64,000 nucleotides of DNA from Escherichia coli (GTDB lineage Bacteria; Pseudomonadota; Gammaproteobacteria; Enterobacterales; Enterobacteriaceae): assembly GCF_050920415.1 (NCBI RefSeq), contig NZ_CP169309.1; one strand, given 5' to 3'. The notes under the pieces were generated by a model. It made no database searches. It saw nothing but the letters and a program-made list of their open reading frames with translations, and had not been told where the DNA came from. The translations under genes and the position numbers were made by a program. Below are positions 29,762 through 50,785 of the stretch, piece after piece. Each line of letters begins with the position of its first letter. Positions within the stretch are counted from its first letter, which is position 1.

Positions 29762-30580
29762 GTGAAACGACTACAAGCATTTAAATTCCAGTTAAGACCA
29801 GGTGGTCAACAGGAGCGTGAAATGAGGCGCTTCGCAGGCGCATGTCGTTTCGTTTTCAATCGTGCTCTGGCGCTTCAGAATGAGAATCATGAGGCCGGTA
29901 ATAAATACATCCCTTACGGGAAAATGGCTTCCTGGTTGGTTGAGTGGAAAAACGCCACTGAAACGCAATGGCTTAAAGATTCGCCCTCACAGCCATTGCA
30001 ACAGTCACTGAAAGACCTTGAGCGGGCTTACAAAAACTTCTTCCAGAAGCGGGCTGCTTTTCCCCGATTCAAAAAGCGTGGACAGAATGATGCATTCCAC
30101 TACTCGCAGGGCGTTAAGCTCGATCAGGAAAACAGCCGTATTTTTCTGCCGAAACTGGGCTGGATGCGCTACCGGAATAGCCGTCAGGTCACGGGTGTTG
30201 TGAAAAATGTCACTGTCAGCCAGCCGGGGCGCAATGTCCGGGCAAAATCAGGTTTAAACCGTTCGATACTGGATCAGGGCTGGTATGAAATGCGCCGTCA
30301 GCTTGAGTACAAGCAGCTCTGGCGTGGCGGTCAGGTGCTTGCTGTTCCGCCAGCGTACACAAGCCAGCGTTGCGCGTGCTGTGGTCATACAGCGAAAGAA
30401 AATCGCCTGTCACAAAGTAAATTCAGATGCCAGGTATGTGGATATACAGCGAACGCCGATGTAAATGGCGCTCGTAACATTTTAGCGGCGGGGCACGCCG
30501 TTCTTGCCTGTGGAGAGATGGTGCAGTCAGGCCGCTCGTTGAAGCAGGAACCCACCGAAATGATTCAGGCGACAGCCTGA
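29762..30580 (+). CDS. tnpB: TnpB-like protein, short (272 aa), apparently lacking the central RuvC-I/II region
   Basis: N-terminus [13 protein letters not shown]...FPRFKKRG...[10 protein letters not shown]-terminal zinc finger CACCGH...CQVCGY and [10 protein letters not shown]; no GIDLG-type motif seen. Confidence 0.7.
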
Positions 30581-30620: not shown

Positions 30621-32446
30621 GTGCGCCCAGCATGGGCGCGATCTTGGAGGTGAAAGTCCTCCCGCGAGCTGACCACAGCGAGCGAAAGGAAGTGCAACTG
30701 CGTGAGGGCGACCGGGCGTGGGGAGGAAGCACGGAATGAACCCGTGAGCCGATGAACAAGAATCGGATATGAGGCGCGATGGAGCAAGGCGAGCAGGCAC
30801 ATCACTGCGAAGCTTTCGTGGTCAAGTCGAAGTCGCGTAGATCCGGCGGTTGTGCGGGGAAGGATCGCGTTCTTACCTGGGGAGATCTCGCCTCATGCCT
30901 GAAAGGGCAACGTCGTAAGACGGAGCGAGAAGTCAGCAGAGGCCGTAGTAGTCAGGACTCCGACGAAGGGCCGAACGAGAAGGAAAGCCAGAAGATATGA
31001 CTCCTGACAGGACATTGCGTCAGAAGCCGGGGAAGCCCGGGCGCATCGTGGGCAGCGAGGGTGAAGCCCGCGCGGTCTCGTCGCGTGACGAAGCACTGTC
31101 GGCGAGTCATGACCCGGAAGGCTTGGGGCGAGCGGACCTGCTTCAACAGGTGCTCTCGCGCGAGAACATGGTCGAGGCGTGGAAACGCGTCAAGGCCAAC
31201 AAGGGAAGTGCAGGTGCTGATGGATTGACCATCGAGCAGACTGTTGAACACCTCAAGACTCGCTGGCCATACATTCGGGAAGCGCTTCTCAACGGGACAT
31301 ATCGGCCTCAGCCTGTGCGTCGCGTGGAGATTCCGAAACCGACTGGTGGCACTCGGGAATTGGGCATTCCGACAGTTACTGATAGGCTCATTCAGCAAGC
31401 GTTGCTACAAGTCCTGCAACCGTTGATCGACCCGACATTCTCGGAGTTCAGCTATGGCTTCCGGCCGGGCCGGAGCGCGCACGACGCAGTGCTACAAGCA
31501 CAGCGGTACGCGCAAGATGGATTCCGGGTGGTAGTTGATGTTGACCTTGAGAAATTCTTTGATCGGGTCAACCACGACATTCTGATGGACCGACTTGCCA
31601 GGCGAATCGCCGACAAAGCCGTACTACGGCTGATTCGGCGCTACCTGCAAGCTGGGATCATGGCGGATGGTGTGGTAATGGCGCGTGACGAGGGGACGCC
31701 GCAAGGCGGTCCACTGTCTCCGCTGTTGGCCAATGTGTTGTTGGACGAAGTAGATCGGGCGCTGCAACAGCGCGGTCATCGCTTCGCCCGGTACGCCGAC
31801 GACTGCAACGTGTACGTTCGCAGTCAGAAGGCGGGAGAACGAGTACTGCGTTGGATGCGCAAGATGTATGAGCAGTTGCATCTGCGCGTGAACGAGAAGA
31901 AAACCGAAGTGGGTCCGGTATTCGGGCGTAAGTTTCTCGGCTATTGCCTTCGGCGCTGGTCAGGAAACACCGTCAAGATTGCTGTTGCTCCGAAGGCGCT
32001 CGACACGTTCAAACGGCGTATCCGGCTCATCACCAGACGCGTTGGAGGCCAGGGCATAACCCAGATTGCCGAACAGATGCGGATATACCTTCGAGGCTGG
32101 AAGTCCTACTTCCGGCTGGCACAAACCCCGAAGATATTCAAAGATCTGGATTCGTGGATACGTCACCGACTCCGGGCTATCCAGCTGAAGCACTGGCGCA
32201 CGGGAACGACTGTCTATAATCGCCTCCGCAGTCTCGGGGCTACCCATGAGCAGGCCGCACTTATGGCAGGAGGCGCGGGGCACTGGTGGAGACACAGCGA
32301 AGCTGGGCTGAACCGTATACTTACAGTCGACTACTTTGATGCTTTAGGTTTACCTCGACTCGCATAACCTCAACTTCTCGAACCGCCCGGTGCGGACCCG
32401 CATGCCGGGTGGTGTGGCAGGGGCGCCGCCTTGTGCTGCCCCCTAT
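30621..32446 (+). mobile_element. group II intron (bacterial class C-like) with internal RT/maturase ORF
   Basis: Begins GTGCG; GC-rich structured 5' region; IEP ORF in the domain IV position; downstream 30-nt hairpin with 2-nt bulge (about 32383..32412) as domain V; ends ...CCCTAT. Confidence 0.7.
30997..32367 (+). CDS. group II intron-encoded reverse transcriptase/maturase, no endonuclease domain evident
   Basis: 456 aa; RT motifs (RRVEIPKPTGGTRELGIP, FRPGRSAHDA, YADDCNVYV) and C-terminal maturase-like region. Confidence 0.9.
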   Translation: MTPDRTLRQKPGKPGRIVGSEGEARAVSSRDEALSASHDPEGLGRADLLQQVLSRENMVEAWKRVKANKGSAGADGLTIEQTVEHLKTRWPYIREALLNGTYRPQPVRRVEIPKPTGGTRELGIPTVTDRLIQQALLQVLQPLIDPTFSEFSYGFRPGRSAHDAVLQAQRYAQDGFRVVVDVDLEKFFDRVNHDILMDRLARRIADKAVLRLIRRYLQAGIMADGVVMARDEGTPQGGPLSPLLANVLLDEVDRALQQRGHRFARYADDCNVYVRSQKAGERVLRWMRKMYEQLHLRVNEKKTEVGPVFGRKFLGYCLRRWSGNTVKIAVAPKALDTFKRRIRLITRRVGGQGITQIAEQMRIYLRGWKSYFRLAQTPKIFKDLDSWIRHRLRAIQLKHWRTGTTVYNRLRSLGATHEQAALMAGGAGHWWRHSEAGLNRILTVDYFDALGLPRLA

Positions 32447-32451
32447 GCCGA

Positions 32452-37231: not shown

Positions 37232-37641
37232 CAGACTGGGTCCTGAATCAAAGAAGGGGAGAGTAAAGACTCTTTCCAGGCATCGGCAATATTGCGCATT
37301 AATGCTTCCACTTCTTCGACTGCGGAGACATCGTTGCGTAAATTGGCTTGCAGCAAGCGCCTGACCATATAGCTATAAAGAGCAATCAAGTTTTGGGTTA
37401 GTTCGTCTTTGCTCTCTTCATCAAGACTCACCTGCAGCCCGTTCTCAATGATGTTGATCGCTTTTGACAAAGAGACGCCTTTGCCTTGCTGATTGTTGTC
37501 CTGCATAAACAGGCGCGCTCTAACCAGTGCGCTCAGCACTCCATCAAATAGCATGGTGACCAGCTGCTGCTGGCTGGCGCTCATTACGGCGCTTTCGACG
37601 CCAATTTGTGCATAGGCCTGGGTGCCTTTTGCCGCGTACAT
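37231..37641 (-). CDS. fliS: flagellin-specific chaperone FliS
   Basis: 136 aa. Confidence 0.9.
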
Positions 37642-37656
37642 AGTTTCTCCTGAAGA

Positions 37657-39072
37657 TTATTTCGAGTTGCTATTTGAGGTGTCGAACTGCTGTGTCAGAT
37701 AGCTACTGGTGGAGTTAAGCGAGTTCATTAACACATCTAATTGGGTGAACTGGGCTTTATAGCGCGTCATTAAGGTATCGATACGCTCACTGGCTGCGTT
37801 GTACTGGTCGGTCAAATTATTCAGCGTTTTGCTGACGCCATCTTTTGCGGCCTGGATTATCCCGGTGGAAGAGAGCCAACTGGTTAGGTTGCTACTAATG
37901 CCGGTGGTTACCCCTGTACTTTTACCGTCACCTATAAACATTTCACCGATGCCAGTGGCATCTTTTTTTAGCGCCGTTTGCAGTTTGTCGGTCGCGATTT
38001 CCAGCTTGCCGGTACTGGCATCGCTGGTAATGCCAATCTGTGCCAGCGTTTTATAGTTTGAACTGCTGTGAGTATTGGCGAGCAAGGTTTTAAGCTGAGT
38101 CTGGATGGTACGCAGTGTGGAGTCACCGAGTAATGCGCCATTGCTGGAGTCCTGACTCTCTGCTCCGGCATCGACAGCGGTGTATTTGGTTAAGCTGCTG
38201 AACGTATCCTGCAATGAGTTATAGGCATCCACCCACGCTTTAACCGCATTTTCAGCTTTGGATGTGTCTTTACTGATGGTCAGTGTCTGATTACCGGTGG
38301 TGACGTCATTCAGGTTGAGGGTGATATCTTCCAGCGCGTCGCTGATAGTGTTACTACTGTTTTCAATCTCAACGTTATTGACTGTCAGTTTGGCGTTTTG
38401 CGCAGTGACGCTTTCAATCATGCCATTGCTGCTATCACCCGACGTTCCGTTGTAACCCATAAAACTTTCCAGGGCGCTGTCGCCGCTGACGCTAAGATTC
38501 ATAGCGTTATCGCTGCCCGTATCGTTAGCGGTGATGGACAGACGATATTCGCCGTTTCCCACATTGATGATACTGGCGCTGACACCAGCTTTGGCGTTGT
38601 TAATGGCATCGCGAATGCCGGAAAGTGACGAGTTACCCGCGCTGATATCAATCGTGACCGGATCTTTACCGCCGCCTTGTTGGATGGTCAGTACGCTATC
38701 GCTGGTGGCGATGGCGGCTTTACTGTCTTTTTGACTATTTTTTGTTGTCAGCGTCTGTGCCTGCGCCAGTTGGCTAACGCTAATGGTGTATTTCCCGGCA
38801 ATCGCGCTGCCCGTGGTGGTGGCGCTGAAAGCCGATGAACTGCTGGTGGTTGAGGTGGCGGTAAATAAATCGGCTTTATTCAGTGCTGTGTTGGCTGTCT
38901 GGAAACTCTCTAGTGCACTTTTCAGCGTCCCGTAGGCGCTCAGTTTCGCGGTGTAAGAGCTTTGCTGTTTTGATATCGGCGTCAGGGTAGATTTTTCTGC
39001 CGCCTCCAGACTGTCAAGGATGCTGCTTAAGTCCAGCCCCGACCCAACCCCAAGCGTTGAAATACTAGCCAT
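37657..39072 (-). CDS. fliD: flagellar filament cap protein FliD
   Basis: 471 aa, MASISTLGVGSGLDLSSILDSL... Confidence 0.9.
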   Translation of the reverse strand: MASISTLGVGSGLDLSSILDSLEAAEKSTLTPISKQQSSYTAKLSAYGTLKSALESFQTANTALNKADLFTATSTTSSSSAFSATTTGSAIAGKYTISVSQLAQAQTLTTKNSQKDSKAAIATSDSVLTIQQGGGKDPVTIDISAGNSSLSGIRDAINNAKAGVSASIINVGNGEYRLSITANDTGSDNAMNLSVSGDSALESFMGYNGTSGDSSNGMIESVTAQNAKLTVNNVEIENSSNTISDALEDITLNLNDVTTGNQTLTISKDTSKAENAVKAWVDAYNSLQDTFSSLTKYTAVDAGAESQDSSNGALLGDSTLRTIQTQLKTLLANTHSSSNYKTLAQIGITSDASTGKLEIATDKLQTALKKDATGIGEMFIGDGKSTGVTTGISSNLTSWLSSTGIIQAAKDGVSKTLNNLTDQYNAASERIDTLMTRYKAQFTQLDVLMNSLNSTSSYLTQQFDTSNSNSK

Positions 39073-39114
39073 ATAAATTCCTTAATCATGCGACGTATAG
39101 AACGAATACCGGGG

Positions 39115-39141
39115 TTATCGGCGTAAGCGGGGCAAAGTTTA
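39115..39141 (-). promoter_or_regulatory. sigma-28 (FliA) class 3 promoter candidate for fliDST
   Basis: On the minus strand TAAACTTT-N11-GCCGATAA. Confidence 0.55.
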
Positions 39142-39214
39142 CGATTTATTTTTTGGCTTAATGACACGAACAGCAACGAGGAAGGGGAGTATTTCGACCG
39201 CTAGAAAAAAATTC

Positions 39215-39241
39215 TAAAGGTTGTGAGTGACCAGACGATAA
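39215..39241 (+). promoter_or_regulatory. sigma-28 (FliA) class 3 promoter candidate for fliC
   Basis: TAAAGGTT-N11-GACGATAA about 75 bp upstream of the fliC start. Confidence 0.6.
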
Positions 39242-39317
39242 CAGGGTTGACGGCGACGAAGCCGAAGGGTGGAAGCCCAATACTTAAACCGTAGACTTGA
39301 AAACAGGAAAATGAATC

Positions 39318-40649
39318 ATGGCACAAGTCATTAATACCAACAGCCTCTCGCTGATCACTCAGAACAACATCAACAAAAACCAGTCTGCGCTGTCGACTTC
39401 TATCGAGCGCCTCTCTTCTGGTCTGCGCATTAACAGCGCTAAAGATGACGCTGCGGGCCAGGCGATTGCTAACCGCTTCACTTCTAACATCAAAGGTCTG
39501 ACTCAGGCCGCACGTAACGCCAACGACGGTATCTCTCTGGCGCAGACCACTGAAGGCGCACTGTCTGAAATCAACAACAACTTGCAGCGTGTTCGTGAAC
39601 TGACCGTTCAGGCCACTACCGGTACTAACTCTGATTCTGACCTATCTTCAATCCAGGACGAAATCAAATCCCGTCTCGATGAAATTGACCGCGTATCCGG
39701 TCAGACTCAGTTCAACGGCGTTAATGTTCTTTCCAAAGATGGTTCAATGAAAATTCAGGTTGGTGCGAATGATGGTCAAACTATCTCCATCGATCTGAAG
39801 AAAATTGATTCTTCAACTTTGGGGCTGAATGGCTTCTCAGTTTCTAAAAACTCTCTTAATGTCAGCAATGCTATCACATCTATCCCGCAAGACGCTGGCG
39901 ATAAACCTGTTGATGTTAACTTTGGTACTACTACTGAGTCTGCAGCAATTGCAGCTAAATTGGGTGTATCCGATACGTCAAGCCTGTCGCTGCACAACAT
40001 TCTTGATAAAGATGGTAAGGCAACAGCTGATTATGTTGTTCAGTCAGGTAAAGACTTCTATGCTGCTTCTGTTGATGCCGCTTCAGGTAAAGTAACCTTA
40101 AACACCATTAATGTTACTTATGATGATTATGCGAACGGTGTTGACGATGCCAAGCAAACAGGTCAGCTGATCAAAGTTTCAGCAGATAAAGACGGCGCAG
40201 CTCAAGGTTTCGTCACACTTCAAGGCAAAAACTATTCTGCTGGTGATGCGGCAGTCATTCTTAAGAATGGAGCAACAAGTCTTGAGTTAACTGATCTGAA
40301 TTTAAGTGATGTTACTGATACTAATGGTAAGGTAACCACAACTGCGACTGAGCAATTTGAAGGTGCTTCAACTGAGGATCCGCTGGCGCTTCTGGATAAA
40401 GCTATTGCATCAGTCGACAAATTCCGGTCTTCTCTAGGTGCCGTGCAGAACCGTCTCGATTCCGCTATCACCAACCTGAACAACACCACCACCAACCTGT
40501 CTGAAGCGCAGTCCCGTATTCAGGACGCCGACTATGCGACCGAAGTGTCCAACATGTCGAAAGCGCAGATTATTCAGCAGGCAGGCAACTCCGTGCTGTC
40601 TAAAGCGAACCAGGTACCGCAGCAAGTTCTGTCACTGTTACAAGGCTAA
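39318..40649 (+). CDS. fliC: flagellin FliC
   Basis: 443 aa; conserved N-terminus MAQVINTNSLSLITQNNINKNQSALS and C-terminus ...QVPQQVLSLLQG with a variable central region. Confidence 0.95.
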   Translation: MAQVINTNSLSLITQNNINKNQSALSTSIERLSSGLRINSAKDDAAGQAIANRFTSNIKGLTQAARNANDGISLAQTTEGALSEINNNLQRVRELTVQATTGTNSDSDLSSIQDEIKSRLDEIDRVSGQTQFNGVNVLSKDGSMKIQVGANDGQTISIDLKKIDSSTLGLNGFSVSKNSLNVSNAITSIPQDAGDKPVDVNFGTTTESAAIAAKLGVSDTSSLSLHNILDKDGKATADYVVQSGKDFYAASVDAASGKVTLNTINVTYDDYANGVDDAKQTGQLIKVSADKDGAAQGFVTLQGKNYSAGDAAVILKNGATSLELTDLNLSDVTDTNGKVTTTATEQFEGASTEDPLALLDKAIASVDKFRSSLGAVQNRLDSAITNLNNTTTNLSEAQSRIQDADYATEVSNMSKAQIIQQAGNSVLSKANQVPQQVLSLLQG

Positions 40650-40666
40650 TGGCCTTAACCTGCCTG

Positions 40667-40692
40667 ACCCCGCCACCGGCGGGGTTTTTTCT
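40667..40692 (+). terminator. Rho-independent terminator of fliC
   Basis: CCCCGCC-ACCG-GCGGGG hairpin followed by TTTTTT. Confidence 0.7.
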
Positions 40693-40812
40693 GTCCGCAA
40701 TTTACTGGTAACCCCCAAATAACCCCTCATTTCACCCACTAATCGTCCGATTAAAAACCCTGCAGAAACGGATAATCATGCCGATAACTCATATAACGCA
40801 GGGCTGTTTATC

Positions 40813-41532
40813 GTGAATTCACTCTATACCGCTGAAGGTGTAATGGATAAACACTCGCTGTGGCAGCGTTATGTCCCGCTGGTGCGTCACGAAGCATTGC
40901 GCCTGCAGGTTCGACTGCCCGCGAGCGTGGAACTTGACGATCTGCTACAGGCGGGCGGCATTGGGTTACTTAATGCCGTCGAACGCTATGACGCCCTACA
41001 AGGAACGGCATTTACAACTTACGCAGTGCAGCGTATCCGTGGCGCTATGCTGGATGAACTTCGCAGCCGTGACTGGGTGCCGCGCAGCGTGCGACGCAAC
41101 GCGCGTGAAGTGGCACAGGCAATAGGGCAACTGGAGCAGGAACTTGGCCGCAACGCCACGGAAACTGAGGTAGCGGAACGTTTAGGGATCGATATTGCCG
41201 ACTATCGCCAAATGTTGCTCGACACCAATAACAGCCAGCTCTTCTCCTACGATGAGTGGCGCGAAGAGCACGGCGATAGTATCGAACTGGTTACTGATGA
41301 TCATCAGCGAGAAAACCCGCTACAACAACTGCTGGACAGTAATCTGCGCCAGCGGGTGATGGAAGCTATCGAAACGTTGCCGGAGCGCGAAAAACTGGTA
41401 TTAACCCTCTATTACCAGGAAGAGCTGAATCTCAAAGAGATTGGTGCGGTGCTGGAGGTCGGGGAATCGCGGGTCAGTCAGTTACATAGTCAGGCCATTA
41501 AACGGTTACGCACTAAACTGGGTAAGTTATAA
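40813..41532 (+). CDS. fliA: flagellar sigma factor sigma-28 (FliA)
   Basis: 239 aa, GTG start. Confidence 0.95.
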   Translation: MNSLYTAEGVMDKHSLWQRYVPLVRHEALRLQVRLPASVELDDLLQAGGIGLLNAVERYDALQGTAFTTYAVQRIRGAMLDELRSRDWVPRSVRRNAREVAQAIGQLEQELGRNATETEVAERLGIDIADYRQMLLDTNNSQLFSYDEWREEHGDSIELVTDDHQRENPLQQLLDSNLRQRVMEAIETLPEREKLVLTLYYQEELNLKEIGAVLEVGESRVSQLHSQAIKRLRTKLGKL

Positions 41533-50483: not shown

Positions 50484-50559
<76 letters not shown>

Positions 50560-50612
50560 GTTTAAAAGACATCGGCTTCAGCGGATGTCCGGCTGAAAGG
50601 CCTGAAGAATTT

Positions 50613-50686
50613 GGCGCGTTAACAAAGCGGTTATGTAGCGGATTGCAAATCCGTCTAGTCCGGTTCGACTCCGGAACGCGCCTCCA
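50613..50686 (+). tRNA. cysT: tRNA-Cys (GCA)
   Basis: GGCGCGTTAACAAAGCGG...GATTGCAAATCC...GGTTCGACTCCGGAACGCGCCTCCA. Confidence 0.9.
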
Positions 50687-50698
50687 CTTTCTTCCCGA

Positions 50699-50785
50699 GC
50701 CCGGATGGTGGAATCGGTAGACACAAGGGATTTAAAATCCCTCGGCGTTCGCGCTGTGCGGGTTCAAGTCCCGCTCCGGGTACCA
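50699..50785 (+). tRNA. leuZ: tRNA-Leu (UAA)
   Basis: GCCCGGATGGTGGAATCGGTAGACACAAGGGATTTAAAATCCC...GGGTTCAAGTCCCGCTCCGGGTACCA with long variable arm. Confidence 0.9.

Follow-up and report, generated by a model that had tools for sequence, protein, structure and literature searches.

An intact chromosomal fliC gene of Escherichia coli predicted to encode flagellin of H-antigen type H25

The question raised by this locus is which H-antigen type is specified by a fliC gene whose product has a shorter central region than that of Escherichia coli K-12. The stretch of DNA analysed, hereafter the window, comprises 64 kb of an E. coli genome. An earlier, sequence-only reading of it had described a 443-aa flagellin, identified as fliC, with canonical N- and C-terminal regions and a central region shorter than that of the K-12 protein, and had taken the latter as a sign of a different H-antigen type. 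The gene, its parts and its direct neighbours were located as follows:

39318-40649, plus strand: fliC coding sequence, assigned as H25 allele, 443 aa and stop codon (open reading frame, Pfam, identity to H25 strains)
39318-39842, plus strand: conserved N-terminal region, aa 1-175
39843-40379, plus strand: central variable region, aa 176-354
40380-40646, plus strand: conserved C-terminal region, aa 355-443
37657-39072, minus strand: fliD, filament cap, 471 aa, divergent from fliC (open reading frame, annotation in strain R32_14_1F)
40813-41532, plus strand: fliA, sigma-28, directly downstream of fliC (open reading frame, annotation in R32_14_1F and K-12)

The fliC gene is a single unbroken open reading frame of 1332 bp, from ATG to TAA. 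Its product was matched by Pfam Flagellin_N (PF00669) at residues 5-140 (E = 1.2e-46; 158.7 bits, cutoff 26.6) and by Flagellin_C (PF00700) at residues 357-441 (E = 7.9e-32; 109.9 bits, cutoff 23). On the minus strand it is neighboured by amyA, fliT, fliS and fliD, on the plus strand by fliA, fliZ, tcyJ and dcyD; according to the open reading frame map and the annotation, the order amyA-fliT-fliS-fliD / fliC-fliA-fliZ-tcyJ is the same as at the fliC locus of K-12 MG1655 and of other E. coli. FliD has 471 aa in the window and 468 aa in K-12. A second flagellin gene was looked for across the 64-kb window and none was seen. The gene is thus intact and ordinary and lies at the canonical chromosomal locus, and its earlier identification as fliC agrees with the open reading frame, both flagellin domains and the fliD/fliA neighbourhood.

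The fliC gene of K-12 MG1655 is annotated with 1497 bp (498 aa), which makes the FliC of the window 55 aa shorter. This gap falls wholly within the central region, with 179 aa in the window compared to 234 aa in K-12 and an identity of 18.5% between the two, whereas the conserved ends are 93.7% (aa 1-175) and 94.4% (last 89 aa) identical to K-12. All that had been said of the protein on first reading, namely canonical ends, a shortened centre and an H-antigen type other than that of K-12, is therefore borne out. K-12 FliC (H48, filament structure 8cxm) resembles the FliC of the window in its locus, in its promoter and terminator elements and in the D0/D1 parts (ca. 94% identical), but differs in the central region, which is 55 aa longer and shares only the stated 18.5% identity; a K-12-type (H48) flagellin is excluded on these grounds. 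The GC content of the central region (39843-40379) is 41.9%, that of the conserved ends 48-53%, and that of the window 50.2%.

For assignment of the H type, the gene was compared with the fliC-H25 data of Beutin, Delannoy and Fach (PLoS One 2015, PMC4441469), who sequenced fliC from eight H25 strains, belonging to serogroups O2, O15, O100, O103, O145, O165, O172 and O177, and found it to be 1332 bp long (443 aa). The length of the fliC gene in the window is equal to this value. Table 2 of the same paper gives a generic fliC-H25 TaqMan assay, with primers and probe designed on the type-strain sequence AY250007 (H25 type strain HW26), and a further assay specific to the 'fliC-H25[O145]' allele cluster. 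All six primers and probes were found in the window with 0 mismatches, with no matches expected by chance:

39993-40073, plus strand: target of the generic fliC-H25 real-time PCR, with the forward primer at 39993-40015, the probe at 40020-40048 and the reverse primer at 40053-40073
39825-39948, plus strand: target of the fliC-H25[O145]-cluster PCR, gene positions 508-631

The oligonucleotides of the cluster-specific assay are located at 39825-39850, 39862-39889 and 39923-39948, which correspond to gene positions 508-533, 545-572 and 606-631, as published.

A full-length fliC with 96-100% identity to that of the window is carried by 146 of 5,426 complete E. coli genomes, and the same 146 genomes were recovered at ≥96% when the central region was searched alone. 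The next best central-region matches (22 genomes) reach ca. 67% identity over 39-65% of the region. The fliC alleles matching the window thus form a discrete allele class. Among the serotyped members, CFSAN004176 is O145:H25 (PMC5567499) and 2012C-4227 is O165:H25 (PMC4683243); the nucleotide identity of the window fliC to these is 98.9% and 98.8%, respectively. Within the central region, 6 nt of 543 differ from O145:H25 CFSAN004176 (98.9% identity). As an internal check, the alleles of CFSAN004176 and 2012C-4227 were compared with each other and found to differ at nt 1134, in agreement with the single difference reported between the O165 and O145 fliC-H25 sequences (PMC4441469).

Length, six oligonucleotides, serotyped relatives and the nt 1134 cross-check together make the H25 genotype well supported. 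The comparison of the central region with H-type references that had been proposed earlier gives H25, a call that draws on the oligonucleotides and gene length in the literature together with the genomes of serotyped strains. Judged from its sequence, the gene is almost certainly an intact chromosomal E. coli fliC encoding a flagellin of H-antigen type H25.

With regard to the allele, the three cluster-specific matches place the window fliC in the 'fliC-H25[O145]' cluster of Beutin et al. 2015. The EHEC O145:H25 and O165:H25 genes (CFSAN004176, NZ_CP014583; 2012C-4227, CP013029; LN555738 and others) are equal in length, in locus and in both PCR target sites, but differ from the window by 15-16 nt and 4 aa. 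From the O145:H25 allele of CFSAN004176 the distance is 15 nt and 4 aa, all four of these in the central region (window to O145:H25: N265D, G282D, S321G and E323A), and an identity with the EHEC O145 allele itself is ruled out by these differences. Seven synonymous differences within the 5' 330 nt set the window gene apart from the EHEC allele; strain CX21 agrees with the window at all but one of these seven positions. E. coli R32_14_1F, a goat strain from Nebraska, carries a fliC (WP_000079779.1) that is 100% identical in nucleotide sequence to the window gene over its whole length. In public collections, the protein occurs unchanged on 90 contigs. A difference of 4 residues from O145:H25 has also been reported for the O2:H25 allele (PMC4441469), which fits the distance observed here, as a match of count only.

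The more distant H25 alleles of MRY15-117, 2014C-3061 and 30COLEC are 8-11 residues away from that of the window. With a single exception, at residue 365, every amino acid difference found between the H25 alleles lies at residues 192-323. Two rarer E. coli flagellins, with 447 aa (strain 300490) and 432 aa (LR-03), are similarly short, can be aligned through the centre and are 79-80% identical overall; their central identity to the window is 56% for the strain 300490 type and 47% for the LR-03 type, which sets them apart as distinct types. In MFDS1022581 (NZ_CP169399.1, 1-1710), a Korean food isolate, the 5' end of fliC-H25 is cut off by IS2 and the remaining 1215 nt are identical to the window; with its fliC truncated in this way, the isolate is presumably non-motile.

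Candidate control elements around the gene were searched with the sigma-28 consensus TAAAGTTT-N11-GCCGATAA and with a terminator scan:

39215-39241, plus strand: sigma-28 (FliA) class-3-type promoter of fliC, TAAAGGTT-N11-GACGATAA, 2 mismatches to consensus
39115-39141, minus strand: sigma-28-type promoter of fliD, 1 mismatch to consensus
40666-40690, plus strand: intrinsic terminator of fliC, a hairpin with a 9-bp stem rich in GC and a loop of 3 nt, and a T run

The element at 39215-39241 was matched by sequence, and we take it to be the fliC promoter from what is known of the flagellar regulon. Aligned with the K-12 sequence, neither of the two sigma-28-type promoters shows a change, and the terminator-like hairpin is kept in K-12 and in every other strain aligned. 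Transcription of fliC would start from the promoter at 39215-39241 and would stop at the hairpin at 40666-40690.

In the flagellins of solved filaments (Salmonella FliC; E. coli K-12, H6 and H7), the conserved ends form the D0/D1 core and the centre forms the exposed H-antigen domain. To our knowledge, there is no filament structure for H25; the closest solved sequences to the FliC of the window are all flagellins. An AlphaFold2 model, calculated from an 8-sequence alignment, is of low confidence (mean pLDDT 56.8) and shows long helical ends, with helices at residues 7-35, 45-100 and 106-129 of the N-terminal region likewise of low confidence, and a mostly beta centre, in which a block of residues ca. 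180-330 has a pLDDT of 64-90. Foldseek matches of the model are flagellins at a TM of ca. 0.3, which supports the helical ends and the beta-rich centre only. By analogy with the solved flagellins, the D0/D1 core of the filament would be built from the helices of aa 1-175 and 355-443, and the mostly beta centre of 179 aa (aa 176-354) would constitute a surface-exposed outer domain bearing the H25 epitopes. From what is known of the flagellin family we infer that the protein is expressed, assembles into a filament, exposes its central domain and reacts as H25 in serotyping.

Other readings of the gene were weighed against this assignment. That it specifies a different or new H type, sharing the length of fliC-H25 by coincidence, could draw on the public annotations of the exact protein, which read only 'FliC/FljB family flagellin', and on an H type assigned without the complete 53-type reference set. 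It is nevertheless exceedingly improbable, given 6 differences in 543 central nucleotides from O145:H25, six exact H25 oligonucleotides and a central-region identity of no more than 47-56% to the nearest non-H25 flagellins; moreover, of the reference strains H1-H56, none other than H25 was positive in the H25[O145] assay (PMC4441469). The four central substitutions relative to O145:H25 might instead mark an antigenically shifted sub-variant that is poorly typed by standard H25 antiserum, as the predicted surface domain contains all four positions (265, 282, 321 and 323), with a change of charge at three of them. O15:H25 and O103:H25, with 7-8 residues different, are still serotyped as H25 (PMC4441469), and alleles 8-11 residues from the window fall in the same ≥96% class, which leaves such a sub-variant highly unlikely.

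It is also conceivable that the genotype is fliC-H25 but that H25 is not displayed, either in a non-motile strain or in one with a flagellin from flkA, fllA, flmA or flnA elsewhere. Many fliC-H25 strains are non-motile (PMC4441469, Table 4), alternative flagellin loci do occur in E. coli (PMC7018530), and the view taken here is 64 kb of the genome, with flhDC beyond the window end owing to a prophage insertion. Against this, the fliC open reading frame, promoter boxes and terminator are intact, as are fliA, fliZ, fliD, fliS and fliT; strains using an alternative locus have an inactivated fliC (PMC7018530), whereas that of the window is not inactivated, and the window is without a second flagellin. 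An undisplayed H25 is on balance improbable.

Read as an intact fliC-H25, the gene is an already known one, with nothing novel in the flagellin itself, and the finding bears on no open biological question. In practice, the gene is of use for inferring the serotype, since it shows the strain to carry fliC-H25; the usefulness for typing that had been claimed for it holds in so far as the type can now be named. The H25[O145] PCR cluster is common to O2, O100, O145, O165, O172 and O177 strains (PMC4441469), and because it spans several serogroups, the fliC-H25[O145] PCR would be positive here whether or not the strain is EHEC O145. The window allele falls inside the cluster but is distinct from that of EHEC O145, and fliC gives no indication of the O group. 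A positive fliC-H25[O145] PCR without serogroup O145 matters to diagnostics using that assay.

Downstream of the gene, the fliC-fliA spacer (40650-40812) comprises 163 nt in the window compared to 320 nt in K-12. In the K-12 fliC 3'UTR, a 156-nt block with two REP-like palindromes lies past the stop codon and ahead of the terminator. The window is without this block, and what is left of the K-12 3'UTR here are ca. 15 nt past the stop codon and the terminator. In the K-12 annotation, a 195-nt sRNA, FliX, is placed over the fliC 3'UTR, and its active form FliX-S (ca. 100 nt) contains one of the REP sequences (Melamed et al. 2023, PMC10578931). The 156-nt block makes up 80% of K-12 FliX and all of FliX-S save its terminator. 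An Rfam scan of 39000-41000 gave no match, even at E ≤ 1. At least 787 of the 5,426 complete genomes have the short 3'UTR form, O25b:H4-ST131 and O104:H4 among them, and the form varies within H25, as 2014C-3061 has the long one. Lack of the 156-nt block is a common polymorphism; its presence or absence within the species is not discussed in the FliX paper (PMC10578931). We put forward tentatively, at somewhat below even probability, that the repression of flagellar and ribosomal-protein genes by FliX may be a strain-variable accessory trait tied to the fliC allele block and not a species-wide circuit.

Filament genes are known to be exchanged as a block. Across 37452-40951, the region comprising fliD and fliC, 3 mismatches to R32_14_1F were counted, whereas divergence is 1-2% in the 18 kb around it; this comparison of one genome pair gives a weak indication that the genes for cap (fliD) and filament (fliC) may be shared as one recombination block. 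The flanks of R32_14_1F are ca. 99% identical to the window with several indels, and it is a different strain.

A group II intron at ca. 30621-32451 is missing from R32_14_1F. Its open reading frame (30997-32367, plus strand) encodes a 456-aa maturase with RVT_1 and GIIM domains, and Rfam models of group II intron D1-D4 match at 30702-30971 (plus strand). The intron sits between an IS200/IS605 tnpB remnant and yedK, abutting the 3' end of yedK. The IS200/IS605 element consists of tnpA (29323-29754) and the tnpB remnant (29762-30580, 272 aa), the latter with an internal deletion of ca. 380 nt relative to R32_14_1F. Further downstream, a tRNA-Gly/Cys/Leu cluster (50484-50785) is followed by contractile-tail prophage genes from ca. 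50790 to the window end at 64000, which by the annotation of matching genomes include tail sheath, tape measure, a VgrG/Pvc8-family protein and tail fibres. At this position, R32_14_1F has yecA-tyrP-ftnA...flhDC and no prophage.
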